From: Psammoneis japonica
Lineage: Eukaryota
Length of the DNA: 46,885 nt
Assembly (NCBI GenBank): GCA_008632985.1
Contig: QPGO01000352.1
Coordinates: 1-46,885, forward strand
Reading direction: 5' to 3'
Both the position numbers and the translations under genes were made by a program. Shown here piece by piece: positions 1 to 25,318 of this stretch (positions are counted from its first letter, which is position 1; the number at the start of each line of letters is the position of its first letter). A model generated the notes under the pieces. The model searched no databases, was not told the origin of the DNA, and saw only the letters and a program-made list of their open reading frames with translations.

Positions 1-2145
1 GGTGTGGCTACCGTCGTCAACGGAACGAGACACCATGGTGGGTCGGCAGTTCTACGGAGGACCTGGTGTTGAAATCACGCAGGTAAATTCAATGCCATCG
101 TGCGCAGAATCATGGAGACCACAATGGCACCTGTTCAACGTTTTGGGAACATGCCTGTTCTGCAGATGGAAACTGTTCTTTCAATCACTTGCCTCATTGT
201 CAGCTCTGTCGCAAAGCACATGTGAGCAACCATTTTAGCACGTCCGAGGATCCTTCTGACGTCGCCGACAATTCACGGGAAGAAGGAACACCAGTGGATG
301 GCCCAGTTGCAATCAACGTTCCTCCTGTTTCTAGCACATGTCCACACAATGCTTGTGCACCCTGGAATGTGCTCGACACTGCGTTTCGTTTTCTGGCTCC
401 GGCTGACCACCCCTGTTCACATGGCCAATGCGAAGGTGCACCGAAACCTCCCACTGGCAGGGAAGTGACTGTCTTCAACCCGTTGGCACATGACATCCAA
501 TCCACTCAAGACTCAGCCACAGATCCATCCACATCGACTGATTCTTCTCGTCGCAGATGCAAACGTCAACATGTGGCCGCCCCAAGACAATGGTTGGCCT
601 CCATCAAACTCACTGTTCCCTGGTTGCAGCAAGCGATCGTGTTTGCGCATCACAACATGAGAACACATCCGCCGGGCACCCCAAGTGCCAAGTGCTTTTG
701 GACGAAAGCCAACCTCACGGCCTGTCTTCGCACTTGTGCCGTCATCCAACACCACATCGACACAGTGTGTGCAGCTGCAAAATGCAATCTGCCTTGCCCA
801 ACACATCCAGCACCTTGGCTCAATCCCAAAGCACTTTCACGTTGTCATCATGCACCAATGCACACCATTGGTCTGGGCAATGTTGGGGGTGATTTCTAAA
901 TGATGTCCAAATTGTTCTCTTGATTTGAACTTCAGGCAACCTTTGGAAAGCAAGCAAACAAATGCTTGCGGTCCATCCAGTCCCTCCGATCAACCAAACA
1001 TTTTGCGGCTCATCCACTGTCCACCAGCAAGTGGGGCACAGGTGCCTGGGTCAGTGAAAACCACTTCTTTTGGGCAAGGACAGTAAAATTTGTGGTTGCG
1101 CTGCCTGCGCTCCACCATCGCCAGTCAATGAACAATCACTCGGATCATGCAGGTGTGTCACGGATGTTGCTTCGATTCGCTTCTGCCACACAAGCTTGTC
1201 TGAGCCAAGTCATGTCTTCGGAGCACGTTGTTGGGGACCTTCACAAAATGGTTTTGATGTGTTTGGATGCAATGGTCGAGATGGACATGAGGTTGATGAA
1301 AGCACCCTCAGATGAGACAGACAACGATGCCGTAGAAGGCACTGGTGAAGTTCGGAAGAAAAAGAAAAAAAGGCGAACTTTGTGAAATCTGTTTCACTTG
1401 GAATGCTGGGAGTCGCGGAATCCCACCAACATGATGGACCGGTCATTTTGCATTGGGAGGGTGACGATTCTGGAGAAAGTGGTGTGCAAACTGTGAGGCC
1501 AGAGGTTGGCATCAAACGCAGCAATTTGGGCTGGCAAAAAAATCGCTTTGCGTCACATTCACCAACAGGCAACCATTTCTTGGCTTTTAGAACGTGACAG
1601 TGAGAAAGGTTCATCGAAGAACAGACGTCTAGATGGCATCTTCAAAATCTGCAGCAACTGGGACACATTGTTGGAGGCAAGACAGCAATGCCTTCCCTTT
1701 GCTGGCCTTGTGTTGTCCGACTGCACTGTGTGGTTGTTGTTTCGACCAGTGGGTGAAAAAAGGAGCTGCTCGCTCCTCTGCAACTGCAGTTGCTTTAGAA
1801 TTTGTGGATGAGGAAGGTGAAGAAATTTTGGACTTGTGTTGGATGGCGCCAGTTCAAGCAACAGACAGGAGAAAATCATTTGATGCGGCAACAGATCTTT
1901 GCAACAGCTTGGGACATCAGTTTGTGCTGGCATTGCCAAGGGTGGAAGATGATGGTGAAACGTTCGTAAACAGCTTTTGTTGTGTCAGCCATCTGTGGAA
2001 AGAAAGAACCAGAGATGAATGCTTTGTGAAATCGGAACTCAGCTTGGACGTTTTTGACGATTGGCTGACAGCCGGCAAACCATCAACTGCTCTGTCATCC
2101 GTCTCGGTTGACAATCCAGCCTGTGTGGGGGAGACAATGGCATGA
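1..2145 (+). pseudogene. Frameshifted Plavaka/CMC(EnSpm)-like DDE transposase relic
   Basis: Joining frames gives GDHNGTCSTFW..LPHCQLCRK, then CHHAPMHTIGLG (the MHxxxLG motif of CMC-type transposases), WGTGAWVSENHFFWARTVKF, and HQHDGPVILHWEGDDSGE (GP...W...E catalytic Glu region). Multiple frameshifts and stops. Confidence 0.6.
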
Positions 2146-2305
2146 GCAGTGCACGTGCTCCAATGGTGGACAGACCCGTGCAGGAGCAGCGCACATGCTC
2201 TTTTGTTTGAAGACGCGCTGTTGTGGCCGACACGCAGCTAGCTGCGGGGGATGAGAAGGACATGCAAGCTGGGCATCTGCTCTCATTGCATGTTCCTGTT
2301 TCTCT

Positions 2306-4153
2306 TTATGAAGTGGAGCTGTGCAGATTGTCCCTCATTTTGTTTGACATTTTGTTTTTGGCCAAAATGTCCAACATTGCCTCTGGTGGATTAGACAGCA
2401 GTTTGTCAAAATTGAACTCAAATGCAATTTGAATGGGACCATGATCCCAAGTCGACCCGGCCCAATCATTGTCCTCACACAGTTCCTTGGCAATCTCCTC
2501 CATCGTTTTTTCCTCACCATCACATGAAAAGTTCTGGATTGATCCACCAGAAGGCAGCTCTTTGGGGTCACTGGAACCATCAAAGTGACAAAGAAAATTC
2601 GCCTCATCGTGGAAAACAAAAAATGACATTCCTGCAAAATGGACATCGCAGTGGTTGACCCTCCCTTTGCTGATCCAGAAGCAAAACATTTTGCAAAGAA
2701 TGTTCTCAACAAAACGAGTGGTGAAGTGAGTGTCTTTCTTGTCATCACCCCCGGGGTTGTTCAACTGCACAGTGAATGCACCCTGTGTGGTTTGAGCCAA
2801 ACGGAACATGTCCGCATCGTCCATCTTGCCCAGTCCACATTCTTCGGCAATTTTCATGTTGGGGAGGGAATCCTTTTTGCAGTGGCAACAATGCAGCATC
2901 CAAACAGGAAGCTGGCCAATTTCTGCCATGATCGCAATCGAATGATTGAGACACAAGACGTCGCATTGCGGCGAGAATTCAGACAACTGATTCATCAGTT
3001 TCTTGTAAATGGAGACGATGTCTTTGTTTTGTGGCTTGTTTGCATGCTCATTCCAAATGTCACAAATCCACTTTCCCTTTTTGTCATTCCGTTCTTTCCA
3101 TTCAGCCTTGGTTGGCAAGGGTGGTCTCTTGCTGCACGATGCACATCGTAGAGGGATGCCTCTGCAGTGTGCCTCTTTTGTGTGGACCATCATTTTGCAA
3201 ATGAGACATCCCAATCCGCAGGGGTCGCTTGGCGGCTGGAAGGCATTGACAGATAAAAGAACCAACACAACTGCTCCAAAGCAATGAGACTGCACCGGGT
3301 GCACCTCAAAGCAAGTCTGAACAGCGACAATCTGCAGCAACGTAAGTGAGAACTTGCCAATCATTGCGACAATGAAGTGTAGAAAGAGCTGGTGGTGTGA
3401 CGTTGGTTCCATGTTGCAGTCGCCTTTCAATGCATCAATTCCTTTGCATCCCTTGAATCCTGTCAAGTGATCATAGATTGTTGCCGGCCCCAGTCGTTGC
3501 CGGTGCACAGGCAAGTTTTGGCAGGTGCAAATGGCTCGTGTTGTGATGGGCAAGGCAAGTCGAATCCTCTTCTCCGCAGTTTCTACAGAACTGTGGGTGC
3601 AAGCAATGGCAGCATCTCTTGTTTCTCCATCATCTCGGATGTTTGAAACAGACAAAACTGGGGGCATGTCTTTGTTTTGGCCGTTGCACTCATCCGAGTG
3701 GCAATCCGTAATTTTGCCAAATTTGGTTTTCGCCAGACGCAGTGCCTCCACGACATTGCTTGCTGAGGCATCCGGCAACGAACCCGCACAGTCTTGACGT
3801 CGGTTTTTTGTCTCTTCATCGTGCCACAATCTAGATGTAAAAGTGGGATTCAGTGTCTCCGCAATTTCAGACATTGACTCAAAAAAAGACATTGCTTCCT
3901 TGGTCCCTTTCCCAACTCGAGGCCGTGCAACACCATCAGCATGGCCTTCCCTTGTAGTGCTTGTGTTGGTGCAAACGCCAAAATCTGCAAAGTGGTCCTT
4001 TGGTTGACGATGGGTCCCAGCTTTCTTGGGCTTGTTGCTTTTCTTTTTCTGAAAATGCTTTCTCTTGCCAGTTTTCTTGCCAACATTGCCTTTCTTTGTT
4101 TTCTTTCCCTGGTTGCTTTTCGACTCACGTTCATGGCATTTGTCAATCAGCAC
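2306..4153 (-). pseudogene. Large hypermutated gene of unknown function, convergent with the transposase
   Basis: 615-aa frame with a Lys-rich N-terminus and globular-looking segments. Contains CHSDECN..RDAAIACTH and LNHSIAIMAEIGQLPVW..FVENILCK motifs. Almost no Tyr, with excess Cys/His. Confidence 0.55.
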
Positions 4154-4290
4154 GCGCGATCAGCCCCAGTCAATTTGGCAGATTGGGTGTTTGTTTGGAA
4201 AGTGGCTGAGCACCAACATGAAGTCATTGCAATGGTCAGAATCAACATCATGCAAGGACCATTTGATGTCAGTTTCATCCTGTCCAAGCA

Positions 4291-5760
4291 TCAACACCAA
4301 ATCCGGAAGGGCACTTGGTGGTGGGGGATGTCTGCTCTGCTTGCCAAGCAAACCTGCAGTTTCAACTGGAAGACAACATGCAGATGGGTGGCATGCTTTT
4401 GCCTGCGTTCTCCAGACAGTTTCCCCAAATTATAAAGTGCTTTGGCTTTTCCAGAATTGCAACGGAAGCATGCACTGTTCATCTCCTCAAATGCAAAAAC
4501 AACATTGAACATGTTTTTGGCATGCAAGCTCTCTTCTTGTGGCAGGGAATGGGGCAACACTGTTTTCTCCCGCCGAGTCATGCAGTTGCCAGTGAAAGCA
4601 GGACGCAGCATCTGCAAGGGCAGTGCTGCCTCAACAGCGCTTGGATGGCAATCAGATGATTTGTCTCTGCTTCCACTGGGGAAATCAGAATCGGAGAAAT
4701 CACTGGGAAGTGCTGACACAACTGCGCCGTCATGCCAATGTGATGATTGGTCACTCTGACTTGAGAAAACAGAATCAACGCCATTGCTGTTTGTTGATTG
4801 TTCCTCGACGTGATGCACAGAAGCCGAGTCCTCATGGCGTTTTGCTTCTTCTCGCATGTGCTGCTCACTCAGCAAGCAAAGCAACCGGTCTGCTGGTCTT
4901 CACTTGCGAGGAGGTGGAGATCGTCCCAGGGGAGATTCCAGGCTGCATGACCTGCCATGAATGCCTGGGTTTGCGAACACACGATCGACCCCGACACCTT
5001 GATGGCGACCTCAACATTGTTGGAGACCTGTTTTTTGACCTGGAGGGTGACCTGCACCTGGATGGTGACCTGTGCGGTGACCTGTGTCTGCACCGAGGTG
5101 ACAACCTAGACCTTTTGTTGGATGAATCCAGAGACCTTCGATGAGACCATTGCCGTGAACTGGATGGAGACCTTTGGCGTGACCTCTGCCGCGATTGCGA
5201 CCGACCGCGGCAATCCCCACATGGAGAGCAGGGAACAGTGCCACAACATTCCCTGCAACTGCGCCGGCAACTTGAGTGATGGTGACCCATGGATGGTGAC
5301 CGACACTGTCGCAGATGCCTGGGATGAGAATGAGACCTGCGGCAGACCCAGAATGACGAGACCTTGATCGACAAGGAGAGCCACGTGAAGAAGTTCCAGA
5401 GCGACAATGATGGCTGGTCCGATGATGCGATCGAGACCAAGAACTTGACAAAGAGCAAGACCGAGGACTTGACCAAGACCGGGACGGCGATTGACACCTT
5501 CGTCGTTGGTGGGAATTCGACCTCGACCTGCATTGCTGTTTGGACAGTCTGCGTTCCCTGGATCTGTCATTTGGATTTAACCACAACCGACCTGTGGAAC
5601 TTTGATCAGGCGATTCGGATCTTTGACAAATCAAGCGACCCGGCGGATCTCTTGATGGACGCGCACTCCTCCTTCTTCCCTCAGGAGCGCCGGATCTGCT
5701 CCAAGCGGGAGCATCACATTTGCCTTTTCTGTGATGCATGGATGGCTGGAATTTGAGCAA
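4291..5760 (-). pseudogene. Arg/Ser-rich low-complexity coding relic, probably the upstream part of the 2306-4153 gene
   Basis: RSPSRCRSPSRSKNRSP / RSRSNSHQRRRCQSPSRS repeats spread over shifting frames; same strand as the 615-aa frame. Confidence 0.4.
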
Positions 5761-6424
5761 GCAGATGCTGCAATGAAAAACAATGAGAGCAGCACAGCTT
5801 CACAACTCCTTTGTCATGCGCAAGAGAATGTGATCGTGTGATGATGATGCCGCCTTTGTGTGGTCGTGATTGAGAGATGCATGTTGGGTGAGTCAGAACA
5901 TCGGAATCCGGAATTTTGCATGTCATCCCCTCACGCAGCCAACTGGTTGTGGCCGCCTGCAGCGCCACAAACAGAACACCACAAAAATTCTGCATTCATC
6001 ATAGATTTTAATGAGAAAATGGGTCCCTTCTTTTCTGCAACATCGCTGCATTTGCTGCATGTTGCAATGACACAAATGGCGGAAAAGCGTGCATCCATGA
6101 CACAGCCGCTGACACCGCTGTTGTCATCAAACTTTGCTGTTTGTGCAACGCCGTTGTCATTCATCCTTCCATTGCATGTTGTCATTTTTGTCAACTTGTC
6201 AACAAGTGTTGACAACATTGTGACCTTCAGCAAAGGATCATTGCGAGACACCACCAGAACAGAAACTGCAACGCTGCTGCAAGAACAATGCTGAGCTCAC
6301 GGTGCAGTCTGCACATTGTTTCTTTATCTCGCATCTCAGATAATTTGGTGTGTGTGCTGCACTTCGTTGACTCCTTACAATCATCATCAGGCACTGCAAC
6401 GAAATTGGTTGCAGACAAAGTCAG

Positions 6425-7650
6425 CAACTTCCCCGCATCTCTGCGTCTGCTGCTGACAATTGCACAGCTTCTGATGAGTGGGACTGCCAGTCCGTCGCCC
6501 AGTGATGTTCCGCCAATCGGTTTTCAATGATGAGACCTGGAGAACTGGCTGGGGCACCCTCGGTGTGTTGTGCAGTTTGAAGAAAAGAGGACCGGCTGAT
6601 CTGGGTTGTGTTGGCAGACGGCGCAAGCTCATTTTTCCTTGACATTGGCAAGAAGACACATGTTCCAAAGCCACTTGTCGGTGGGTCGTCTCCGTCTTTG
6701 ATGACTCTTCCCTGCATCTCCGTGTCTGCTGCTGAGAATTGCACAGCAACGGACGAGTGGGACTGCCAGTCCGTCGCCCAGCAACATTCCGCTAATCGGT
6801 TTTCAATGATGAGACCTGGAGAACTGGCTGGGGCACCCTCGTTGTGTTGCACAGTTTGAAGAAAAGAGGGCCAGCTGATCTGGGTTGTGTTGGCAGACAG
6901 CGCAAGCTCATTTTTCCTTGACATTGGCAAGAACACATGCACTCCAAAGCCACTTGTCAGTGGGTCGTCTTTGTCTGTTGTGTCTCTTCCCTGCATCTCC
7001 GCGTCTGCTGCTGACAATTGTGCAGCAACGGATGAGTGGGACTGCCAGTCCGTCGCCCAGTGACATTCTGCTGATCGGTTTTCAATGATGAGACCCGGAG
7101 AACTGGCTGGAGCACCCTCGTTGTGTTGTGCAGTTTGAAGAAAAGGGGACCGGCTGATCTGGGTTGTGTTGGCAGACGGTGTGAGCTCTTTTTTCCTTGA
7201 CATTGGCAAGAACACACATGTTCCAAAGCCACTTGTCGGTGGGTTGTCTCCGTCTGTCACATCTCTTCCCTGCATCTCCGCATCTCTGCTGACAATTGTG
7301 CAGCAACGGACAAGTGGGACTGCCAGTCTGTCGCCCGGTGACATTCCGCTAATCGGTTCTCAACAATGAGACCTGGAGAACTGGCTGGGGCACCCTCGTT
7401 GTGTTGTGCAGTTTGAAGAAAAGGGGGCCGGCTGATCTGGGTTGTGTTGGCAGATGGCGCAAGCTCATTTTTCCTTGACATTGGCAAGAACATGTGTGTT
7501 CCAAAGCCACTTGTCGGTGGGTCGTCTCCACATCTGTTGTGTCTCTTCCCTGCATTTCCATGTCTGTCGCCCACCGACAGTCCGCTGATCGGTTTTCAAC
7601 AATGAGACCTGGAGAACTGGCTGGGGCACCCTCGTTGTGTGGTGCAGTTT
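6425..7650. repeat. Tandem repeat, about 279-bp unit, about 4.3 copies
   Basis: GCTGATCTGGGTTGTGTTGGCAGA recurs at 6595, 6874, 7153 and 7431 (spacing 279, 279, 278). Reads as a 93-aa repeat on the minus strand. Confidence 0.95.
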
Positions 7651-10600
7651 GACGCAAATGAGGCAGCAGCAAAGGGAAGCAAGGATTCGCCTGCGATGTC
7701 AGGGGACAATGGAATGAAAGCTCTTGCCAAAGCAGCTGTTGTTGCATCCCAAGAAGAGAAGGAGGAAATCCGGTTGTCACAGGAGGAGAATGACCACAAT
7801 TCCCAGGAAGAAGATGTGGAAGAAGAGGAGGAGGAAATGCGGCTGTCAGAGGAGGAGAAGGAAGCTGTGAATTCTAAGGAAACAGACAATGATGCTTCTC
7901 AGGAGAAGGAAGATGTGGATTCTTTGCCAAAATCATCAAAATCCAAGGAGGGGGACATTCAAAAATTCCTCCCAAGCTCCGGCATTTCATGACTTCAATC
8001 AAACATGACATGTCAAAGCGTGTGTGGGACAATGTCCACTGCACTTGTCCCTTGTTTGCCGTGGTCAACCCAAGCACAGAACCAAAATCACTGGCTAAAT
8101 TGGCAAATTCTGGAGACGCGGGCCGAACAATCGTGGGAAGAAATGCTTTTTGTTGCATCACAACCAGAAGGGGTTGTCATCCGACTTCGGCAAAGAAGGA
8201 ATTAAAAAATCAATGGAAGCTGCAAAGGATTTTCTTCTTCGTGAATTTAATCAAGAAAACAAAGGCGACATTGTCAATTTGTTGAACAACAAACACACTC
8301 ACATTTTGGGAATTTGTGCAGTGCCAAAAAATGAAGAAATCGGCAAACTGGACGCGCATCTTGTCGCTGCATTGTTGTGTCGGTGCATTGAATTGGTGCC
8401 AGCAACAATTGTTGACTGTGTTCGAGTCGACAGAGGAGCCGAAGTCCACAACCATGGGTTGTGCCCATTCCTGATCAGCCTGGCTCAATCCATCGGCTGC
8501 ACGGTTGTTGGCACTTGGGACACAATGCTGCATTGTCAAGTCAAGCTCAAACAATGCTGCTGTGAAACTTTGGGTTTCGAGGACATCACAGAGGAAATGA
8601 ATGAGGAGCCCTCTTGGGAAAGAGCAAGACACCATTGGAATTGGAGTGATTTGATTGAAGAGGATGGAGACAACACTCGGGCACTGATGGTGAAACGCAG
8701 AGTCACCACATGTTGTGCAAAAATCACCTTGCCCATCTCTCACACAGACAATGATTTCCAATGCAATGCAAAACATTGGCGGGATCGTGTTGGGTTCTGG
8801 AGCAGCAAGAAGAGACCCACCGATCAACACCAAGATTTGGTGGATCAAGAGAAAGACCTCATCTGCAAATCATCAGTGGTGATGGTTGGCAATGCAACAC
8901 TGGATTCTTTTAAAGATTCCTGGCAAAAGCACATGGATGGACGCCAATGGTTTGACATTGGAAAGTGCATTTGCGAATCCTGCGAATGTTGTGCGGGTGC
9001 AAGTGACGCCAACCAAGTTAAGTCACATTTCAAGACAACGGCTTTGTTTGCCGCAAGCGTCAATTTCTCCTGCCAAACGAGTGAATTGGCAAATGATGAA
9101 ACATGGAAAAGAGCAGCGTTTCGATCGAGAACTTCCGAGCCAACTCAAAGAGCGAAATGTGTGAGGGGCAAGTTTGACGCAACTGCGGAGTCGGGAACTG
9201 ACAACGGGAAGCATGTTCTCAACCCCAAGCATTGCCAACAGAGTCGGAGCGATTCAGATGAAGACATGGAAATGGAAATGCCTTCAGGTGATGATGGAGC
9301 CACATGTCAACTTCTTGAAAGAATCCATTTGAAGTGCAACACGTGCAACATGGTGTTTCCCATTGATTGCAACCAGGAAGATCAAGGTGGACTGTCACCA
9401 GCAGCAACTTTGTTTTCAGCGCTTGCGGGACCTTGCTGTGATCATGCAATGTGTGTTCCGGGCAAGCACCCCATTTGCACTGCACAAAGCAAAATTGCAG
9501 AGTGCGAGCTGCTGGTTGGTGCTGCACAAGAAGACAGAGAAACTCTGAAGGACCTGGAGAAACGCCAAGTGCGGTTGAACAAAAAGGATTTCTTTCTGCA
9601 ACCTTTGCGACACATTGCAATTTGGTGCAAAGAAGCGGAACAACTGCATTGGTGCCAGATCAATCGGTCATTCCAACAATGTCGTTTTGCAGAGCTGGCG
9701 AAGGAGGCGATGCTTGACCAAAAATTCTCTGCCAGGGGAAACAAGAGAGAAAAGAAGGAACCGAAACCACAAGAGGGAGATGGTGACCCAGAGGAAGAGG
9801 AGTCTGAATCGGAGCCAGAAGATCAAGGTCTCCTTGTGTCACGAAGAAAAGTGTTGTCTGCCAGGGACAAGAAATGTCAAGATCTACGTCATGAGGCGAG
9901 GGTGCACTGTGAGGATGCCAAAGAATTGGCATGGCTGCATGGTTTTGAGTGGGTCGATCGGGCCACACGGCAGGATGAAAGTGAGGTGCCAGGTGATGCT
10001 GTTGAGCATGAAGGGCCAGTTTTGTGTGGGTGGTTCGAAGATCTCAAGCACAGCAGAACATTTGCTGAAGACTGTTTTGGAGCGACCAATGACAAGGACA
10101 TTGGAGGAGCGAAGATGAACCTTGTTCGAGACACCATTGAGGAAGCCAAAGAGAAGCCTGACACAAGAGTGACTCTCAACGCTGGACAAAAGAGGCAAAT
10201 TGGAAAAGTGAGACGGCTGACAGAGAAGGAGCTGGTGAAGGAGGGGCTTGCAGCCGATGATGATTTTGAAGGTCCGGAGGGAACGCCAGCATTCGTGGGG
10301 GTTGGCACAAGGAAGAAACCGCACCATTGCACCATGGAGTGGGCAAGAGCCAATTTTCAGCAGCGATGTCCCGGAGTGCACAAGGCCATGTGTGATTGGA
10401 AACCAGGGAAGAAATGGTGCAGACTGCCGGAGGGTGACGTGTCAGACAAAAGCGGGCTGGAATTTCCCAGCTCGGGACCCCCAGTCAAACATCAACAAGG
10501 GGAGAAAGACACGTGCATGTTTTTGAGCCTGGCTGGTGTCCCAAATTACATTGGAGATGAAAGGATGGAGCGATGTGTTGTGAGTTGCATGGATCATTCT

Positions 10601-11040
10601 TGCAGGTCAGAGAACACCAACAACAAACAGTTGGAGTTCGCCATTGGCATGTTGTTGGGACAAAAGCAGAAGCTTTGTCCTCCACTGGCTACATCAATGA
10701 AGTGGCACGCATGCAAGAAGCGTCAGAAAATGGCAGCTGGCAAGAAGGGATTCTTCGATTTGACCACCCACATTGCCGATGACATCGTTCTTTGTCGGTT
10801 GACAAACAATCATTGCATTGCTTTGCATGGTGGTTGGATCTTTGACTCCAATCATGAATTCGCTCTTCCGGCAAAAGACATTCAGTGGTTGAATTGGTGT
10901 TCAGGGAATGAAACATTTGAAGCAGATGCACTGGCAGAAGATCCAAAATCAGCAGCGGAGGAAGCAGTTTTTTTTTGAAATGCCGAAGGCTGTCCAAACA
11001 AGGTTGCGCAAACGCAAGCGGCAAGACAATGCAATCACAG
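7639..11040 (+). pseudogene. Large multidomain relic: acidic N-terminus, GNAT-like domain, C-terminal papain-like (Cys/His/Asp-Asn) domain
   Basis: 942-aa frame 8150-10978 plus frameshifted flanks. TIVDCVRVDRG..NHGLCPFLISLAQ..MLHCQVKLKQCCCETLGF reads as GNAT motifs A/B once Tyr is restored (DYV; YYETLGF). QQGEKDTCMFLSLA..NHCIALHGGWIFDSN resembles a papain-fold catalytic set. Confidence 0.5.
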
Positions 11041-11399
11041 GTCAACTCTTCTCACTTGGCATGGTTGTGGCCAACGATTTCCAGGCATGTGGGCGTTTGC
11101 GAGTCACCAATGTTTTGCCAACAAGCCTGGCCTTTTCTGCAGCACGCAACAGTTGGCACATTTGCGGCAGTGTGTGAGGCTTCCCACCAAGGACATTCTT
11201 CACATGAGCCCCTTAGTTTGAAAACACATGCCCACGGGTTGATCTGCAAAATGACTGAGCAATTTGCAGATGCCATTCATTTCCTCGTCCATGTGCGGGC
11301 ACACATTTAACCAACAGCGGCATCCATCAACAGTGCATTGGCTCACAAGAGGCTTTGTCCACTGATCGTGCTTTTGGACTTTCACGTTGTCCAATGGGG

Positions 11400-12413
11400 T
11401 GGCGCAAAGCAGGGGAAGGAAACGATTCTTGGTCGCTGGCGTCAGATCACTTCATTTCACAGGAGCAAACACAAGCAAGCCGCTGCCCCACGCATCTTGC
11501 TCTGTCACTTTGAGTTTCTTCAGGACAGTTTGTCGACGCTCGGCTGTGAGATGGAACTGTGAAGTTGCAGTCTTCCATGTCATGATGATTTCTTTACAAT
11601 CCATGCCCATGGAGGTGCCACGATTGGGAAGAGATGATGTCATGCTGCAAAACCGATTGTGATGATCGGGTTTTGCCAAAACCATGCCAACTTGCAGCCA
11701 TTTGCCCATGGCAACACAGGCAACAGCATCAACAAAATGCTTGGGTTTTGCCAGGCATGACAGCATGCATCCACTGCATCTGCCCGTCATGATTTTGTCA
11801 ACAACAATCTCAGAGGAATGGCGGTGAGCCAACCGACCGAGAGATTCTAGAAAGTCGTCGCTGAGTGTTGTGTCATTGTTTGCCAGCATCAATTCTAAAA
11901 ACAATGCAGTGATTGGCACCTTCTTTACAACCTGATCAAACAACGGAGATGAATGTGGTTGAGACAATCCTTTTTGCACTCACTGAGCTCCGCGGAGCTC
12001 AGAGTGCCTGGCATGTGATGCGGCAGCGCAATGGTGTGATTGCGTGTAAAAGAGTTAAACACGTCGTCCAGATGCATTGCCGTGCTCGGACCATGTTCTG
12101 CACTGAACGTGCTGGCAGTCCAACAGTGGACAAGCCCATGATCACCGGCCACATGACTTCCACATGCAATCAAACATCCGTCGTTGTGCCCTCCCGTCAC
12201 AGAATTAATTGCAAACAAATTTGCATCGGAGCCGTTTGGCATCACTTTGTGCAGCAGCAATTCACCATCAAAGTGACGAAAAACAACTTCTTCCAACTGC
12301 TTGTGATGGCCGATGTCCATGGAAGAATTCATCAAATCTTCGCCATTGCGTTTTAAGCCACGCGGGCTAACGGCAACCGAATTGCACCCCCAATTGTTTG
12401 CCATGTCGTCCAT
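11400..12413 (-). pseudogene. Class-III (PLP-dependent) aminotransferase-fold relic
   Basis: Motifs in the expected order: NGSDANLFAI (cf. SGSEANE), ITALFLE, FLESLGRLAHRH.EIVVDKIMTGRCSG (cf. LIxDEVxTGxGRxG), VAMGKW (PLP lysine), AWGSGLLVF (cf. RGxGL), KNRFLP. One frameshift near 11927 and a stop near 11452. Confidence 0.7.
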
Positions 12414-13301
12414 GGCATCGTTTGGGATTGTTCAATGCGCAAAAGAGCAAGATGCAAGATTCAAGAAGAGTCCCAAAAGATGATTGGATGGAAAAAAGGG
12501 AAGGGATTGCAGCTCTGTTGATGGACAAAAGGAGGCTTGCGCAGCGCAGAGGATTTGTGAAAATGAGGTGGAGCAGCACATGTGCTCTCAACCACCAAAA
12601 GCACAAAACACGTGCATTCTGCTGCACTGCGCATTTGCAGACAAGCCCTGCACGCAGGGCCCCACACATGTTCCACACGCTGAAAGAGCAGCACGCACGT
12701 GCGCATGTCCTCCCACCCAATCGTGTGATTGCACAATGCATTTCATTCAACAACGTAGATGAAGCGAGCACTTTAAAAAAGAACACACATGAAAACTCAA
12801 ACTTCAATTGTGGAAAATCACACATTCAAAAGTGAGCCAATGAGAACCCAATTTTTGTTTGAGGAAAATTTTGTTTCAAATGGGAGGAAAGAACAATCTT
12901 CTTAACACAACAGGTCGACATGGTTGTCAATGTTCATTTCAGAACATTGATGCTTGATTGAAACAATGAAAAACACAGAAAAGAACAAAACTGAACACAA
13001 TTCAAAAACCGTGCAATGAGAACATGCAACCGTGACTTTGCAATTGTGTCAAACAGATTTGGCTCGTCCCGGACCATCCACAAGCACAAAAAGTGATCAG
13101 AAGTCGAAAACACAATGACAAATTCATTTCATCAGACACAGGTGTCGGTCGTCAGCCTTGATCTTACAAACACATCGAGGGCAGACACTTCAACAGAGGG
13201 AAACACAACCCCATCAAGGACAGATGTTGCAACAGCGGGAAACACAGGTGGGTGCATTTGAAATCACAGTGTGCGTTTGGAAGCTGACATTGTGATCTGA
13301 C

Positions 13302-16300
13302 ATGCAGTGGGAAGCTTCCACAACAAATCCAGGGGAAAAAATGACAGCACCCAATCGTCCATTGGATTGTCCAAGAGACTTTTTCCATCCGACGACAGGG
13401 GCCAACCCCGCAAGACCAGAGGATGCTGCTCTTTTGTGGTCATGCCGAAAGGCACGTCCACAACTTGGTGAGGTGGAGACGGTGCTGCCCAATGGCAAGA
13501 AGATGCTTCAAGAGGTGGCACAAATCCGGTCGTCCCTTCGAGGACACGTCATGACTCAATGCCTGGAGGGCTGTTGGAAAAATGCAATGGACAAGGGAGT
13601 GGCAATGCCATCAACAAACACCAATCCCGTCACAACAGAAGACTTCAAGAACATTCTGGCAAGCATGGACAACACAACCGAGAATCAGCAGCTCGTGCAT
13701 CAAGTTTTCCACGCCTTTCATCGCAACAGAGGATGGCTGGCTGCTGCCATTGACAAATGGTTTGCCGAAAAGCTCACGCTGCACGCCACGGACGCTTCCA
13801 GCAAACCTCGCAAAATGTGTCGCGATGACAGAGGCAGGTTTGCTGTGGTGGCACGCCAGACGCGTTCCAGCCCCAGGTGGGAGCTCGCAGCACTGACGTG
13901 TGACACAAATAATTTTTGTCATCCGTCGCATGTTTTGCACATGGAAATGGCATTTTAATTGCCGTGGCACGCAGAATTCTACGGGCCCAATGTCACATGG
14001 ATTCCCACCTGCGTCTGGAACGCGTCGTGTGACATTTAAAAAAAATTGTCCAGACTCGCTGTTTTGCGAAGCCCCAGACGTTTTGTGCAATGAATTTGCA
14101 GAAACAACAATGCGCCAGCCACATTCTTGAATGTCTGAAGAATGTAACTGGCTGAGTAAAAAATGATGTGCTTCAATCATGGGCGAGTTTGTGCGTTTGC
14201 AAAATTGCCTCATTTTTTGTTGGCGATCATTGGCATTTTAATTGCCGCATGATTTTACTGCGGAGCTCGCACGCAGAATTCTACGGGCCCAATGTCACAC
14301 GGATTCCCACCCACGTCTGGAACGCGTCGCCAAGCCAAATGTCAAATGATCAAAACATTTGTGGAGTTCATGCTGCAAAAAGCAGGCTGGTGTGTGGCAA
14401 ATGCAATGCACAAGAGCAACAAGGAGAATGTTGGAGGCAAAACACATGTGGCCGTTCCCGCTGCAACCAATGCAGAAACAACAACCAAAGCAAAGTTTTA
14501 CGTCGTGTCGATGAAACCAGTGGCGGCAAGTCAGTCGCACATTGTTTGTTTGTCCTTTTGTTGACAAACTTGTTTGGTTTGCAACTTCGTTCCCATTTCC
14601 AGTCCTTGACAGCAGGAGGAGAACACCGAAGCATCAAAACAAGTTGCTCAGGGAGCACCCAGCAAAGACATTGACATTGCATCCCTTGTGGACCTTGCGA
14701 AAACAGCAAGCATGTTGTCAGAACAAATGGGAGTTCCGCTGTCCAAGGAAGATTTGCTCCAGTCGATTCGTGGCTGCATGACAGTCACCAGCTCATCCCA
14801 AATGGTCAACGAAGAGATTGTGCTTGATCCGCAACATGAGTCCGAAACTCAGGTGTCAACACTGACCATGGACACCATGCTAAATTGCCCATCTGAACCT
14901 GCAGCAAAGCGGAAGTTAACCGAGAAGGAGAAGGAGGCAGAGCCAATTCCTTGTTGGGAATGCAATGATGAACTAGAACCCCTCACCATGGATTTGGATG
15001 TCATCAATGGTTGGAATTCCAGTGATGAAGAGTTGGCAGAAATGGCGTCACAGGTGACCACATGATTTGGTGGTCCAATTGCTGTGGTGTTGGATGGCTC
15101 TAACCAACTTCCGCTTTGATGCCTTGCTTGGCTTGTCAGACACAGTTGTCTGGGTCCCCTTGTTGCAGGATGGAACAAGAGCCCGGGAATGCTCCAGCGG
15201 CAAGAAAAATGTGTCATGTCATGCGGCTGAATTGCATGTCGCTCACGCCACCATTCTTCATGCAAAAGGTTGATGAGATGGACGAGCCAACTGGTGCAAA
15301 AGAAAAGGTGAGAGCATTGTCGGTGCTCCAGCTGTCGATTTGGACTGTTGCTCTAACAGCTCTTTGGCGTCATTGGGTTGCTGGATGCCACACCAAACCA
15401 TCCCAGACAGTTGAAACACTGGAGCGAGCACAAAAAAAACAAGCAAGTGAACAGAGTTCTGAGGCAGAGCGCGACACATGGATTGGATCAACCAATCACA
15501 CTGCTCCTGCTGTTCTTCATGACCAGGCAAATGAGGTGGTTGACAGTGGCAACAATGAAAAGGTGAGAGCATTGTCGGTGCTCCAGTTGCAAATGAAACA
15601 ATTGCTCCAACCACTTTGGGGCGTCATTGCTGGATGCCAGACTCAACCATCCCCAGTTGCTGAAATGCCAGAGAGAGCACCACAAAAGACGGCAAGATCA
15701 CATTGTCTTGCAGCCAATTGTGCAATTCATTGGACACGTCTCACACAGCCGTTGTTGTTTGCAATGAGAAAGGTTGAAGAGACAATGGCAAATGGCGCAA
15801 ATGAAAAGGTGAGAGCATTGTTGGTGCTCCGGATTGCCATTGAGAAGTTGATCTGATGGCATTCAATGTGTGTCATGATGGCACTTCTTTTGCAGACTCA
15901 ACCAGCCAACCACTCTAAACCGTTGTTTAATCCATTGTGAAATGAAGCGGTGAGAATGCATGATGAAGTCGTGCGGATTGTGCACAGTGTTTTGGAAACA
16001 CCTCTCACTTTGTTGTTTGTTTGCAACAAAGACAAAGACAGCAAATGACAAACGCGTGCACAAAACTGCAACACTTGTTGTGGCTCAAGCGGATCAAACA
16101 ACTGCTTGCAATTCGCAGGCACAGAGCAAACGTCATTGTTGATTTGGCATGCCTGTTGTTGTGTTGTCTTGTTCACGCACGCAAACCAATTGTGTTTGTT
16201 TGTTTGTGTTTGCAGTGCAAGTGCGAGGAGGCTCACTTGTTCCATGCCTTGGTCCATCAAGATGACGGAAAATGTTTTGCTCAAGCGCGCTTCAAAACCA

Positions 16301-16596
16301 ACCCACTGTTCCCTGCAAAGTGCTGTGGCGAAAAGTGTGATGTTGTTTTTGGATCAAGCAGTTACAAGGTTGGACAAAGAAAGGCAGTTTGGGTTTGCAT
16401 GAACGCATTGAATGGTTCTTGCAATTGCAGGTTTGCATTGTGTGTGCAGTGTTGTCAAAAGACCATGTCAGCTGCATCTGACAAACGGCGCCGAAGGACA
16501 ACCCGAAACAACAGACATGTTCCAGCCGCACGTGAACCAAATCGTGCACAAAAACGACATTTGCGCGATTTTTGCGCGGTCCCTGCTTGCGATTGA
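13302..16596 (+). pseudogene. Intron-rich gene with C-terminal Cys-rich zinc-finger-like domain, interrupted by a MITE
   Basis: Removing the MITE and one TSD restores ..VVARQAKCQMIKTF... Predicted introns include 14526-14612, 15054-15139, 15200-15268, 15443-15526, 15563-15640, 15692-15772 and 15809-15895. The last exon (from about 16216) encodes KCCGEKC..VWVCMNA..CNCRFALCVQC. Confidence 0.6.
13859..14328. mobile_element. MITE, TIR GACGCGTTCCAGnnnnAGGTGGGA, 4-bp TSD GCCA; carries an extra internal copy of its right end (about 13948-14026)
   Basis: TIRs at both ends; GCCA at 13855-13858 and 14329-14332; excision restores the surrounding reading frame; homologous to 35834-36229 in inverted orientation. 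Confidence 0.9.
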
Positions 16597-16907
16597 ACTT
16601 TCACCACCAAAAGCATGGATTCACACAAATGCAAATGTGTTGCAACACTGACAAGACTCGTGTGAGTGTTGCAACATCATTGTCATTGTGCCATCTGTGT
16701 TTTTCATTGCGCTTTAAAAGGTTCGCAACACAACGGATGATTTTCGGCGAAAACATTGCCGTCATTTGGATGTCACCCAAACACATCTTTCTACGATGCT
16801 GCTTGGCAGGTTTTCCACCTGCGAAAAAATCTCAGCACAAATCTGATGACGTGCGGCCAGCGTTGAGTCCACTGAGGAAGTTTGTGGTGCATGTCCCATG
16901 AGGATTT

Positions 16908-17357
16908 GTGCAACACACAGCTGCCAACAAGAGTCAATGCATCACGGCGACGTGTTGCAGCCTTTAAATGTCACAAAGGGCGTGACAAAAATGACCTTTT
17001 GTCTGCATGCATGCTGCACTGTGAATTCACAGCGGAGTGGTTCAATGCGCAACCATTGGGCAGGAGGCCAGGGGTTCGAAACCCTGAGTGGGAGTTGTCT
17101 GCAGCAACGTTGATCACTGTCGAACGCGCAAAACTCTGTGCAGTTCTGTGTGTTCCTTCGCACGCACCCACACTGTTCCGCCAAAACCGTGCAGTGTCAG
17201 CACACGTTAGTAAAGAGCCGCATGGACGCGTGACACATGGGGAGGAGTGCAACACACAGCTGCCAACAAGAGCCAATGTGTCACGGCGACGTGTTGCAGC
17301 CTTTAAATGTCACAAAGGGCGTGACAAAAATGACCTTTTGTCTGCATGCATGCTGCA
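16908..17357. repeat. Two 111-bp direct repeats (16908-17018, 17247-17357) with an internal TGTCAC..GTGACA hairpin
   Basis: Near-identical copies; a third, partial copy lies at 36508-36589. Confidence 0.9.
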
Positions 17358-17669
17358 TTTGAACACCCCTCAAAAAACCATTTAAATGTTCACACTCCAG
17401 AAGCCCACAAAAGTCAATCCGTCTGAGCATTTTTGTCAAAATGCTTTGTGCACTAAAATGTGCACAAATTATGTTCAAAATCCGATTGTCGTTTTGTGCG
17501 TCACCTGGGACTGGAACACGTCAACAACAACAAATGACAAGGCAATGCAACACATGCACACGATGCAACAATGTGCAATTGCTTGGGATTGATTTCACCG
17601 GCACAGTCAGGGTTCGGCGGATGTGTTTGTTGACAGAGTCAATCGAAGCGCAGCTTCGCAAATGTGACA

Positions 17670-18090
17670 GTTGTTCAGAGCATCAGCAAATTTGTTCAGA
17701 GTTGTGATCTGTTCAAATGGAGAGGCTGTCGTCATCCGTTGTTTGTTCAGAGCTTTGCTCTAGTTAAATGTCCGTTGTTTGTTCAGAGCTTTGCTCTGAT
17801 TAAATGGAGATTCCACGGGCATCCAAACATTGTTCAGAGTCGTGCTCTGATTGAATGGACACAATCACAGCAGCGCTCTGAACATCAGCACAATGCTCCA
17901 ATTTGCAAATTGTGCTCTGAATGCAATGCTCCAAGCAAAATTCTGTGGCTCCGAACAACCAAATTTACTCTGATTGTGCTCTGCGTGGGCATTGTCACCT
18001 TAATTGACTCTCATTTGCTCTGAATGTCCCACATTGTGTCGGGATGATTTAAACAAAGCGTTGCTCAGAATAAAATGTTCGGAGCACAAA
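17670..18090. repeat. Array of TGTTCAGAGC / GCTCTGAACA-like motifs in both orientations
   Basis: TGTTCAGAG near 17672, 17693, 17745, 17780 and 17831. Reverse-orientation GCTCTGA near 17793, 17844, 17875, 17914 and 18017. Confidence 0.75.
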
Positions 18091-19296
18091 TGAAGAGAAT
18101 CTCATTTGCAGTGACAAGCAGATCATTTGAGCATCGCGCATCGCGCGTCCCCCCAAGTCCACAAAACAACATGGCGCTTGGCGCTTGTCCTTCACAATTT
18201 CTTCTTTCTTGCGAAGCATCATGCCTTTCACCGGCATGCGATCTGTTGCTGGACACATTGGAAGGCTCGTCGTTTCCATTTCGTGGCTAAAATCGGCAGC
18301 AGCAACTGCTCACAGTGACTCTTGCAACACTGAGCCACCCCAGTTCATGATTCTGGGGGTGTCAGGAACATTGCAGGATGGATTTCCTCTCCGAGATCGG
18401 CTTGATTTCCAGTTGGGCGAATCAGACGAGTCTAGAGCTGTCTTCATTGGAAAAGGACTCATTTGAGGGCAAGCACATCATGCACACACCTCAACATGTC
18501 CAGGCACGAAGCATTTTTCGTGCCTTGCCCACTCTGACTCTGGCGCCTGCTTCCACTCTATTCTTCTCCAAGGCACAAAGCCTGCCTTGACATCCAAGAG
18601 GAAGGGTGGAGAGAGTGCGTGCCAGAACCAGACAAGCCGAGTGCCAACCATGTCGTCCTTCCTTCAGGATGCCACGAACATGCCAACATTCATTGGTTTT
18701 ATGCCGTTGACACCCGCCAGGTGCGCAGACAAAAATGAGCTTCAGCAAACATGATCACGGATCTTCACACAGAGATGCTTCAGTTTCCCTCCAACCTCTA
18801 ACTCACCAAATTTTGAAAGGTTTTGTCCATTTTGAACAACGAGCCTCGATTTTTGAGCATGTCACCAGACACCGGTCTGGTTGATCTCACTTCTGCGGAG
18901 ACGAGCGAAGTGTTGAGACACTTTGCCAGGTACAAAAACCAGCGTCAAGGCACAACCGACACTGCCTCCGTTGCAATGCCGCCAGTGACGGGTGTGTGGT
19001 GTCATCCTGATCATGTGCCAAGCCCTCTGGCACATGCAAAGGATGATGAAACGCAGGTTGCAAGTTTCGAAACAAGCATTGTGCTCTGGGCTCATGCTGG
19101 CAGCAAGGATTCGCACAAAGACAAATGCAGTCATTCCAATGATGCCACTTGCGCTGGACACGATTCCGATGAACTAAGTGTGCCATCTGACAATGATTGG
19201 GAACATGTGCACCGTGCAGTGAGAAGAGCGGAAAATGGCATTCGGTCACAACAGACACTCCTGGCAAATGGACCACCTTTTCATTGCTCCGAAACA

Positions 19297-19840
19297 ACAA
19301 GACTGGGGGTCGGGCCATCTGCAGCAAGAGTCAACAAACCATTCACAGCAGCTGAGCTCAAATCCATTCTGAAGGCCACGAAGAATTGGCAAAGTGTGGA
19401 AAGGAATGAATCAACCACCCATTTCAGTTGAGGTGACGTTGCAGCAATTGCTGAGTGTGGATCTTCCGGTGTCGCATTCGCCGCTCTTTGCTGTGTCCAC
19501 AACAACGGGACTTTTTGGACAACAAGGCCCCGAATCAAATCGCAAGCATGCTGGCCAATGTCTGAGCCGTCTCGCGCCACCAGTCCGGGAGCGCTGCAAT
19601 CCCAGAGACAGATTTCATGCTCAAAGTAAACTGAGGTGTTCTTCGGGCAGATGACTGAGTCGTCGTGCACTGCTGCCACAATTGAACGACAAGCAGGAGG
19701 AGTGGGAAAAGCTCCAGGCCCACTTTGTTCTCATGTTCCTGACACAGTGACGATTTCTACAAGACTGGGGGTCTGGCCATCTGCGGCAAGAGTCAACAAA
19801 CCATTCACAGCTGCCGAGCTCAAGTCCATTCTAAATGCCA
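19297..19840. repeat. About 80-bp direct repeat (19297-19378, 19759-19840)
   Basis: ACAAGACTGGGGGTC..AGAGTCAACAAACCATTCACAGC..GAGCTCAA.TCCATTCT present twice. Confidence 0.9.
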
Positions 19841-20499
19841 TGGAGAGACGAAAGTGCACCTGACTCCAATGTCGAGAGCGACGAGACGAACGAGAACGAG
19901 AATGACACAGACAATGAAGAAGAAGAGGGCGGCGACATGTAAAAGAGTGCTGGTGTAGCTGGTTTGGAAGCCGTCGCCTTGGCAGCATCAAAGTTGAAAT
20001 GGTCTGTCGTCAAGACGGATGATGACGACGACGCTGGTGCAGGTCAGATGGAAAGCTTGGGTCAAACAGACCCCTTCAGCACCGATGCACCTCAAAGACA
20101 GGGAGAAGGAGGAACTGGTGCTGCACCGCCAGCGTGAGTTTTCTCATGCGATGCATTTGACTTGGCATGATTGAATTGAAAAGTTTTCCCACTGACTTGT
20201 CGTGCACTCACTGTTCTCAATGCCTTGCCTTGGCGCACAAGCAGTCGCTCAGCAAATGGCGGTTCAGGCTGCAGCAAACACAGCCACTGCAGAAGCTACA
20301 ACAGCTGCGGCTGCAGCCGGAGGGGCGACGGCCACTGGCTCAGGGGTTGGAACAGGTGCCATCGTGGCGTCTGTGGTTGCTGCCACAGCTGTTGTTGCCG
20401 CCCCCTGTCACATCTGGGGTGGTTCTGACTGAAAACAGAAAGAGTGCAGCGGCCACTGCCGCTCCGGAAGGCTTACAGTGCGACGTAATCGAACGCATC

Positions 20500-20660
20500 A
20501 CCAGGGCTGCGTGTGTCAAGGTTTTGCCTCTACACATTTTAAACAAAAAGGATCCAATCATTGTTGGTCTTAAAGTTACGGAAGGGAACCTGTCAGTTAT
20601 CGGACTGACATTGTTGTTCGTAGCGCTGTGTAGACTGTGTATGGAAACTCGAGTCATTAT
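20500..20660 (+). pseudogene. Short degenerate fragment resembling eIF5B domain IV
   Basis: ACVKVLPLHILNKKDPIIVGLKVTEGNLSV resembles the eIF5B segment PCVLKILPxxxFNKKDPIxxGVxVxEG. No other eIF5B parts nearby. Confidence 0.55.
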
Positions 20661-21138
20661 GACCGCGATGATTTTGGCGGTTGTGTAGAAGCTACGTGGG
20701 AACTTGGTACACGGTTGGGAACCAATATTTGAATTTTGTCTCATTCCAACCGTCGGAACCAGCGCAGTCGATTTTTGACAAATTCGGCCGATTCCCGACG
20801 TAGAGCCACGTAGGTATATACCAGTGTTCCGGGAACCGGCCGTCGCGTTCCCGGAGTGAGCGATACACATGATATGGCACTGGAGGGTCATTTCTGACTC
20901 GTAGAAATCTACATGTTGTCTGGTATTGAAATTCAAAAAGTGCTCTCGACCCAACGGTGGTTCCTGCACATGCTGGCTACGACAATGTTGTGTAGGTCTC
21001 TGGTATGTGACGTCGCAGAGTTCAATCGTGTTTGAATGCCACAAACCGATACTGACTGTGAAAAAGCATACATAAATAAATAAACATATAAACAGAACCG
21101 CCTAATTAAAATAAATATACATCTATATGTATGTACAA

Positions 21139-21154
21139 TATATATATATATATA
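21139..21154. repeat. (TA)8 microsatellite in an AT-rich island
   Basis: Directly visible. Confidence 0.95.
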
Positions 21155-21322
21155 AAGCAAACCCACGAAACGACACCGCGATCGAGAGGCCGTCACCGTC
21201 GACCATGGCGTCTTCCAGCGGTCCTATACGAAGAATACATCACCAGGATCACTCAATAGAGATCCATGTTAATGTATTTTGTTGGTCTCTGTGTTGCGTC
21301 AGTCCTCTAACTGACAGGTTCC

Positions 21323-21558
21323 TGTGGAAACCGGTCAGTCACGTGGACGCGTCCTCACCTTTGGGTGCGCTTCGGCATCGGGGACCTCCGCCTCAGCGCC
21401 CCCTCAGGTTCGGCCGCTCCGGCCTCTGTGGAATTTGTACGGGAGAACCGGCACTCAGCCTGCCGGCTTTGTGACCGGTTCCGATGACCTCAGCTGACGC
21501 TTCGGTCATTCCCGCACAAATTCCGCGTCGGCTGGCCAGTGACTGAACGGTTTCCACA
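21323..21558. repeat. 236-bp foldback unit bounded by 20-bp TIRs (TGT...ACA)
   Basis: TGTGGAAACCGGTCAGTCAC versus GTGACTGAACGGTTTCCACA (19/20). A nested inverted pair (GTGGAATTTGTACGGGA / TCCCGCACAAATTCCGC) lies inside. No TSD found. Confidence 0.65.
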
Positions 21559-21595
21559 CATGTTCTCAAAGTCGGTGCTAACGTTGTGTCTCCCA

Positions 21596-21757: not shown

Positions 21758-21770
21758 CTCTTCCCTTCCA
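21758..21770 (-). other. Polypurine tract
   Basis: Minus strand TGGAAGGGAAGAG immediately before the 3' LTR. Confidence 0.85.
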
Positions 21771-25306: not shown

Positions 25307-25318
25307 TTCCGTCCCTTG

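Follow-up and report, generated by a model that had tools for sequence, protein, structure and literature searches.

Fungal repeat-induced point mutation (RIP) changes C to T, mostly at CpA, and it makes the DNA richer in AT and gives rise to stop codons. Another dinucleotide-specific process has been described in Bigelowiella natans by Mettrop et al. (bioRxiv 10.64898/2026.01.13.699255), where the new mutations in two viral inserts, as the preprint reports them, consist almost entirely of A>G and T>C changes at TpA. The same source reports 124 clusters depleted in TpA and enriched in CpA+TpG, which hold mostly unannotated genes, and an enrichment of reverse transcriptase (RT) and DDE domains among coding sequences low in TpA; it includes a single-copy viral insert among the affected loci, and its authors propose an ADAT2-like DNA adenine deaminase as the agent. 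Among the titles and abstract openings listed by literature searches for the signature, none apart from this preprint describes hypermutation of genomic repeats from TpA to TpG/CpA. Large cargo-bearing DNA transposons form a second body of comparison: in the account given in PMC12730594, Plavaka elements come from fungi, and the transposases of the wider CMCT group share a C(2)C...H(3-4)H pattern. Here we analyze a stretch of 46,885 nucleotides from Psammoneis japonica (assembly GCA_008632985.1, contig QPGO01000352.1, positions 1 to 46,885), which we call the window, and in particular its first 18 kb, for which an original prediction had proposed a giant transposon of the Plavaka/CMC type. Our leading reading, to which we give roughly an even chance, is that positions 1 to ~18,150 are the right-hand part, at least 16.7 kb long, of a large repeat unit, dead and of unassigned superfamily, that exists in several copies, bears cargo as well as nested inserts, and owes its death to TpA-specific hypermutation.

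The dinucleotide composition of this block is extreme and uniform. In every 3-kb bin of 1–18 kb the ratio of observed to expected TpA is 0.05–0.11, compared with 0.59 in the host genes at 42–46.9 kb, while TpG (1.57–1.81) and CpA (1.55–1.78) are in excess. At a resolution of 500 bp, all 41 bins of 1–20,500 hold only 0–7 TA, against 14–35 in bins of host genes; their observed/expected ratio is 0.00–0.19, and that of TG+CA is 1.36–1.89, reaching at least 1.52 in 33 of the 41. As a fraction of dinucleotides, TA accounts for 0.0052 of 1–18,150 and for 0.042–0.044 of host regions. By its dinucleotides, then, the sequence from 1 to 18,150 is TpA>TpG/CpA hypermutated DNA, and on this point the original prediction, which had called the whole run hypermutated, was right. 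TG and CA are equally frequent in the block (0.1027 and 0.1019), and therefore both DNA strands were hit, which counts against one-strand RNA editing.

The depletion has edges, and these edges are sharp. It passes position 18,090 and continues to 20,473, with a TA fraction of 0.0057 in the flank 18,151–20,473; only three TA occur in 19,900–20,473, thirteen follow within the next 220 bp, and from 20,474 onwards TA is dense. Two further depleted domains lie to the right, one at ~21.5–28.0 kb, which consists of a gypsy element and its flank, and one at ~33.5–41.95 kb. The latter ends as abruptly as the first, at 41,954 (no TA in 41,400–41,953, dense beyond); its left border is gradual, extending over 33.5–34.35 kb.

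Comparison of related copies indicates that the missing TA dinucleotides were once present and were changed where they stood. The two long terminal repeats (LTRs) of a single element are identical at insertion. When the LTRs of the gypsy element are aligned, eight positions carry TG in one copy and CA in the other; such doublets also occur between the 279-bp tandem units of the block (8 and 5) and between a pair of miniature inverted-repeat transposable element (MITE)-like copies (5). A double difference of this kind implies that each copy separately converted an ancestral TA to TG or to CA. The protein level tells the same story. At eight aligned tyrosines of a 466-amino-acid (466-aa) aminotransferase relative, the window reads His four times, Cys twice, Thr once and Phe once, and Tyr never; His and Cys are the products of TAY>CAY and TAY>TGY, as expected if TA was changed in place. 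Tyrosine makes up 0.1% of a 959-aa open reading frame (ORF) in the block, 0.3% of a 617-aa ORF and 0% of a 270-aa ORF (87–896), versus 1.1–2.2% in host ORFs and 0.8–7.9% in 38 stored relatives. As far as such alignments can tell, TA is changed in place on both strands.

A transition of A to G or T to C at TpA cannot create a stop from a sense codon; it removes TAG, and it turns TAA into CAA or TGA. In all six frames of the depleted DNA, the stops number 1648 TGA, 182 TAA and 115 TAG. Since the process gains no stops, ‘ghost’ reading frames outlive the genes from which they derive, and a long ORF in a TpA-mutated region is no evidence of function or of a live gene.

The TA sites that survive are informative about the preference of the mutator. 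We compared them in the depleted DNA (1–20,450, 21,560–27,950 and 33,500–41,900) with the TA sites of normal DNA (20,451–21,559, 29,089–33,499 and 42,000–46,885). Survivors preceded by A number 19 of 208, as opposed to 151 of 458 in normal DNA, and those followed by T number 15 of 208 as opposed to 119 of 458. ATAT is absent among the sites of the depleted domains and accounts for 44 in normal DNA; conversely, the context Y-TA-R is found at 97 of the 208 survivors and at 69 of the 458 normal sites. The mutator seems to prefer T-A-Y (TAT above TAC, TAG and TAA), whichever strand is concerned. A shortage of CpG is also evident in 1–18,000 (observed/expected 0.55–0.70) and in 36,000–42,000 (0.37–0.40), barely so in the gypsy region 21,500–27,000 (0.86–0.98), and it is about 1.0 in host genes; a second, separate process, such as deamination of 5-methylcytosine, may act on some of the domains.

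The copy status of the block can be read from the assembled contigs of a DNA sequencing run, X1, which we aligned to positions 1501–21,500 at an identity of at least 85%. Altogether 6153 contigs align, 1244 of them at 99% identity or more, 1804 at 95–99%, 2307 at 90–95% and 798 below 90%, and their differences from the window comprise 664 transitions and 144 transversions. Summed depth is 400–1300 over 1501–13,506 and 14,841–16,174. It falls from 2530 in the bin 17,509–18,175 to 112 in the next bin, 18,176–18,842, and it remains at 97–143 over 18,176–20,176; among the contigs listed at joints, the lowest depths are 75–95. The pile-up of contigs on 1.5–18.2 kb is thereby 4–13 times that on 18.2–20.2 kb. 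Individual contigs with a depth of 320–660 and an identity to the window of 94–98% occur at 1.5, 2.6, 3.8, 5.0, 13.4, 14.3 and 15.6 kb. The region 1–18 kb is therefore repeat DNA in several copies, in which the window opens, and its right edge lies at ~18.1–18.2 kb. The end that the original prediction had placed near 18,090 agrees with the fall in depth; it does not agree with the hypermutation, which runs on to 20,473.

Two joints within the contigs bear on the internal structure of other copies. One contig, of depth 574, passes directly from 13,853 to 14,328 with an overlap of five letters and continues to 15,170, and two contigs, of depth 594, pass from 16,903 to 17,357, again with an overlap of five letters. 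These are empty sites: other copies of the block are without two small inserts that interrupt the copy in the window.

At its right edge, the block carries an array of short motifs. Of the 13 sites of GCTCTGA/TCAGAGC in the window, eight fall within 17,675–18,023, in both orientations and three of them as short palindromes that can form hairpins, so that the motif array of the original prediction is indeed there, at the edge of the repeat. Similarly, TGCTCTGA occurs eight times where 3.5 are expected, and five of these occurrences lie in the array. CACTA elements typically have subterminal arrays in which short repeats occur in either orientation, though such arrays are not unique to them.

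What did the block once encode? We compared its ORFs with a composition-matched null of 300 first-order Markov simulations of 1–18,200. The longest simulated ORF averages 246 aa; its length at the 95th percentile is 322, and no simulation goes beyond 435. Observed ORFs of at least 200 aa number 12, against a simulated mean of 2.5 and maximum of 8; individually, two ORFs alone, those of 959 and 617 aa, are longer than any simulated one. The expectation of at least four large genes is partly borne out, as an excess of long frames of which only two stand out one by one. For protein families, we scanned with Pfam 150 stop-to-stop ORFs of at least 70 aa from 1–20,043, of which 17 were rerun under relaxed settings at E up to 10.

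The 959-aa ORF (8099–10,975, plus strand) is the longest of these decayed frames. A phmmer search of 1.84 billion representative sequences gave 25 matches at E≤1e-3 (best 5.1e-20), all to its C-terminus, and in BLASTP alignments to full-length relatives only the last 250–300 residues align; a word-seeded search with the ORF found nothing. The N-terminal 650 residues have no detectable relatives, and a search of the first 700 against PDB sequences gave a chance match (E 1.3). The relatives of the C-terminus are unnamed metagenome or Logan proteins, none of which carries a Pfam family. A Cys (QGxxxxC.F.SLASAL) and a His (NHC....WIFDSN) do not vary among them, whether 24 or 16 sequences are compared, and the predicted catalytic order Cys, His, Asp/Asn is kept in full in the window copy, with WIFDSN after the His. 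Adenain-type viral proteases have the order His...Cys.

The C-terminal region, approximately residues 650–941 (nucleotides 10,040–10,921), is predicted to be a papain-fold (clan CA) cysteine protease domain. Its AlphaFold2 model has a mean confidence (pLDDT) of 75.7, and all 50 matches listed for it by VIA are cysteine proteases, deubiquitinases or their kin. The best among the matches listed is AvrPphB (Z 8.4, root-mean-square deviation 4.5, 142 residues aligned), although by the tool's own caveat best Z-values of 7–8 are common for unmatched models; the others include the herpesviral M48 deubiquitinase (7.9), staphopain (7.8), C39 peptidases (7.8) and the VTD entry 8add (7.5). Neither Foldseek nor BFVD gave a match to the model at E≤1e-3, and a profile of the family against PDB sequences gave only a chance match to a repeat protein. 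We considered a VTD deubiquitinase and rejected it: the invariant Asp-x-His is absent, the residue two before the His being N, S, T, D, E or another across the family. With the 959-aa protein alone, a search for loci with the same gene neighborhood found none; a scan with an alignment of six protease sequences found three metagenome loci of 1–3.3 kb, with the protease domain only, and no viral locus.

The second enzyme of the block is an aminotransferase. The minus-strand sequence 12,410–11,284 corresponds to residues 3–376 of the 466-aa relative, and it is a pseudogene, with a frameshift near 11,940 and one in-frame stop. It matches this relative, protein P0038, which carries PF00202, at 46% identity (E 4.7e-31); tblastn recovers it as two separate stretches, 36% and 43% identical (E 6e-69), and 28 of its 30 matches in the ESM Atlas carry PF00202. 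Judged by this homology, it belongs to the class-III aminotransferases. P0038 itself retrieved nothing from IMG/VR and, from GTDB genomes, only a distant bacterial aminotransferase. The X1 bins over the pseudogene have depths of 577–1258, like the neighboring bins, and it is therefore part of the repeated unit. Together with the predicted protease, it gives substance to the enzymatic cargo that had been proposed. Pfam found no match on the aminotransferase fragments, and since the remnant is genuine, profile searches must have poor sensitivity on TA-mutated DNA.

The remaining frames are less easily placed. The 617-aa ORF (2309–4159, minus strand) has no match in Pfam, in a word-seeded search, in the ESM Atlas, in PDB sequences or in IMG/VR, and its single-sequence AlphaFold2 model is unusable (pLDDT 32.9). 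At the left of the window, a run of plus-strand ORFs (87–2142) consists of 87–896 and 924–1382 in one frame and 1633–2142 in another; its start is rich in Cys and His, it has no Pfam match at E up to 10, and it is possibly what the original prediction called a transposase relic. The alternating gene orientation of that prediction is evident in the plus-strand 959-aa ORF and the minus-strand 617-aa ORF and aminotransferase.

Tandem arrays and small inserts complete the block. At 6428–7566 a unit of 279 bp is repeated 4.1 times (Tandem Repeats Finder score 1775, 88% matches); the unit amounts to 93 codons and is open on the minus strand. Three diverged tandem units of ~250 bp each lie at 15,265–15,843, where they appear both as repeat families and as blastn self-matches. 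The first of the two small inserts, at 13,859–14,327 on the plus strand, is MITE-like: it has inverted termini of ~25 nucleotides (ACGCGTTCCAG...), CGCCA on both flanks and an internal duplication of ~87 bp. X1 depths reach 27,000–50,000 in the bins at 13.5–14.8 kb, and contig depth suggests hundreds of copies of this family in run X1; within the window, further copies lie in the third depleted domain, at 35,816–36,229 and 37,742–38,139, both on the minus strand. The second insert, at 16,904–17,356, consists of nested small repeats of very high copy number, with two direct repeats of 130 bp, and the bins at 16.2–17.5 kb have depths of 16,000–72,000; its 130-bp repeat recurs at 36,460–36,589. 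Inside it, at 17,040–17,095, is a GGTTCGAAACC box that resembles a B box or a tRNA T-arm. Neither ARAGORN nor Rfam detected a tRNA or a short interspersed nuclear element there, and the box serves as a lead only.

These features can be assembled as follows. The unit would be present in roughly 4–13 copies of the nuclear genome and would most likely be a long-dead mobile element, later peppered with small high-copy elements. It contains the now decayed protease ORF, the 617-aa ORF, the aminotransferase as cargo, and the tandem arrays, and its right end would be the array of short palindromic motifs. The block was inactivated in place by TpA-specific transitions, that is, by A>G on either strand leading to TpG or CpA, presumably through a DNA adenine deaminase. 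The large mobile cargo unit of the original prediction survives in part in this form, with its several copies, its fairly even depth over ~16 kb, its edge at the array and its cargo; the Plavaka/CMC label is not supported.

Several points weigh against this reading. The longest contig listed is ~0.9 kb, and the full-length contiguity of the other copies, hence the unit of 16.7 kb as a single thing, is something that we infer from depth. Depth itself is at two levels, ~400–850 over 1.5–5.5 kb and ~580–1300 over 5.5–16 kb, which could mean two units or truncated copies. Moreover, the outside evidence on copies comes from run X1 alone (one DNA run of one sample, containing 0.38 of the sampled words), X1 is perhaps the very sample behind the assembly of the window, and summed contig depth, as the depth tool itself warns, is not copy number. 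TA depletion extends 2.3 kb past the drop in depth, so the domain of mutation is not the repeat unit. Finally, no transposase, integrase, Rep/helicase (RepHel), polymerase or capsid family of Pfam was found in the 150 ORFs. The left end of the unit lies outside the window, within which no inverted repeats pair 1–1500 with 17.5–18.2 kb.

The strongest competitor dispenses with a single element altogether. It is rather unlikely, in our estimation, that the first 18 kb are instead part of a silenced chromatin region rich in repeats, such as a subtelomeric or pericentric one, where several unrelated repeats, duplicated pseudogenes and tandem arrays underwent a joint segmental duplication and were then hypermutated as a domain; yet several observations speak for this view. 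The two depth levels (~600 and ~1050) meet at 5.5 kb, tandem arrays occupy 6.4–7.6 and 15.3–15.8 kb, and small elements are nested in the block. The sharp TA borders at 20,474 and 41,954 do not match the edge of the repeat.

The flank beyond that edge deserves particular attention. A contig of a further run, X2, which is labelled ‘DNA?’, covers 19,547–20,133 and 20,237–20,585 and omits 20,134–20,236, a segment that starts with GTGAGT. Thus 18,151–20,473 probably holds a spliced, expressed gene on the plus strand, which is low-copy and yet lies inside the hypermutated domain. For the original prediction, equal hypermutation of all the genes meant that they had been treated as repeat DNA. That inference is weak, because this low-depth flank is equally poor in TA, and because a single-copy viral insert is also hit in B. 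natans, according to the preprint (bioRxiv 10.64898/2026.01.13.699255).

The other depleted domains are of mixed content as well, which again suits a chromatin domain. The second contains a Ty3/gypsy element (21,596–26,935, minus strand) in which RNase H (E 2e-26), RT (E 2e-11) and the zinc and core domains of integrase are recognizable; its LTRs are 162 bp long and 86% alike, and its TA fraction is 0.0084. The third contains a fragment of a RabGAP-TBC domain (38,785–39,144, plus strand, E 1.3e-13), so pieces of cellular-type genes are hypermutated too. A separate duplication links 27.07–28.46 kb with 39.4–42.0 kb. More precisely, the flank of the gypsy element at 27,074–28,456 and the end of the third domain at 39,414–42,044 are diverged duplicates of 75–82% identity; within them, the copy at 41,019–41,264 is poorer in TA than its counterpart at 27,574–27,817 and shows CG>TG/CA changes more often.

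Two observations favor the dead mobile unit over the chromatin patch. Depth stays within approximately three-fold over 14 kb and then drops more than ten-fold in one bin at the array, as at a terminus, and the family of the protease ORF is scattered in metagenomes, a pattern that suits selfish elements better than host genes.

A bolder version of the dead mobile unit is one that we regard as quite improbable. In it, the element would be a giant cargo DNA transposon of an undescribed superfamily, its own machinery consisting of two proteins, the zinc-ribbon/papain-protease one of 959 aa and the one of 617 aa, and the mutation would be a RIP-like host defense of opposite direction, an adenine deamination at T-A-Y that acts on chromatin domains containing any mobile DNA and spills over into expressed neighbors.

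The original assignment to a giant CMC/Plavaka (CMCT) cut-and-paste transposon, in which a degraded DDE transposase would occupy the left, captured enzyme genes the interior and a subterminal array the right, strikes us as very doubtful. A multi-copy block with its right edge at the motif array and with cargo genes is what such an element would leave; GCAGTG at 18,108–18,113 could be a former ...TAGTG end, although the 5-mer is common in this composition; and a transposase might have been missed just as Pfam missed the genuine aminotransferase remnant. The Plavaka/CMC label itself, however, rests only on the subterminal-like array. No motif copy occurs in 1–3000, and the transposase relic could not be recovered: none of the 150 ORFs matches any transposase family in Pfam, nor does any of the 17 in the relaxed rerun. 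The 617-aa ORF does contain a C(2)C...H(3-4)H motif, which we rejected as a sign of a transposase. The pattern occurs seven times, six of them elsewhere, in 12,697 ORF residues, spurious antisense frames included, and it is non-specific here because Tyr>Cys/His inflates Cys and His.

Least probable of all is a relic of integrated viral DNA, from a giant virus, a virophage or a polinton-like element: the published targets of the TpA process, as the preprint gives them, are integrated DNA of nucleocytoplasmic large DNA viruses (NCLDV) and virophages (bioRxiv 10.64898/2026.01.13.699255), and in its range of size and the mixed orientation of its genes the block would suit a virophage or polinton-like insert, but the 150 ORFs hold no Pfam match to a capsid, ATPase, polymerase, integrase or adenain-type protease, the protease of the window has Cys before His, unlike the adenain type, its model has no counterpart in BFVD at the threshold given above, and IMG/VR yielded no locus to any of four queries, namely the two long ORFs (959 and 617 aa), P0038 and the protease alignment; negatives of this kind are weak evidence.

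The window has a eukaryotic look, and it also contains genes of ordinary composition: a WD40 gene at 30,788–32,911 and a DOCK DHR-2 gene at 43,150–45,282, both on the minus strand. The assembly has a gap of 285 N at 28,804–29,088. Scans for tRNAs and Rfam families (ARAGORN, Rfam) found nothing, and tblastx of the window against itself gave no gain over blastn. Run X3 has no contig that aligns to the stretch, and no RNA runs are listed as containing it.

It remains to set the locus beside the systems that it most resembles. The VTD and OTU deubiquitinases of Helitrons and Helentrons (PMC9741609) are alike in that a papain-fold domain ends a long ORF of a selfish element; in the description given there the VTD family has its invariant Asp-x-His, whereas the corresponding residue varies in the window family, and no RepHel match accompanies it. 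The same holds for the hallmarks of the large elements in general: RepHel for Helitrons, pPolB and integrase for Polintons, and a tyrosine recombinase for Starships have no Pfam match in the 150 ORFs, at poor sensitivity. The CMCT elements (EnSpm/CACTA and Plavaka), as presented in PMC12730594, resemble the block in being large DNA units with non-transposase enzyme genes and a repeat array near one end. They differ from it in their DDE transposase, of which Pfam found none in the 150 ORFs, and in their cargo, which is TET/JBP rather than a protease ORF and an aminotransferase. Transposons of the CMC/CMCT clade (EnSpm/CACTA, Mirage, Chapaev, Plavaka) are further marked by terminal inverted repeats with 5'-CA..TG-3' ends (CACTA, or CATCA / TGT in Plavaka) and by target-site duplications of 2–5 bp.

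The likeness to fungal RIP has three sides. In both cases, dinucleotide-specific transitions saturate transposons and duplicated DNA, kill genes and can reach past the repeat. Unlike RIP, the process seen in the window turns A into G at TpA; GC content goes up, and no stops can arise. The published case of the TpA process, as far as the preprint describes it, includes a single-copy target.

The closest parallel is B. natans, and the block would be a further target of the mutation process that is known from that one preprint. The two have in common the dinucleotide signature, its presence on both strands, ORFs that mostly cannot be annotated, and RT or transposon domains among the targets; even the background agrees, with a mean TA of 0.041 in the coding sequences of B. 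natans, according to the preprint, and 0.042–0.044 in the host genes of the window. There is also a practical consequence: since Tyr>His/Cys blinds profile searches, annotation of transposons and viruses in genomes of this kind needs consensus building that takes TA into account. The differences lie in depth and in target. The NCLDV insert of B. natans has a reported Rho of 0.45, and the depletion in the window is far deeper and falls on a multi-copy, non-viral block. Where the preprint covers the TpA process mainly for integrated viruses, the window has the signature at saturation on that block and also on MITE-like elements, a gypsy retrotransposon and a neighboring gene that is low-copy and seemingly expressed. 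With borders so sharp and targets so mixed, a single locus can test whether the process recognizes DNA as repeated, as foreign or as part of a chromatin domain. Saturation on several non-viral classes of repeats, sharp domain borders and a preference for T-A-Y are the new detail that the window adds, the last of these apparently going beyond the main-text description of the process in B. natans.

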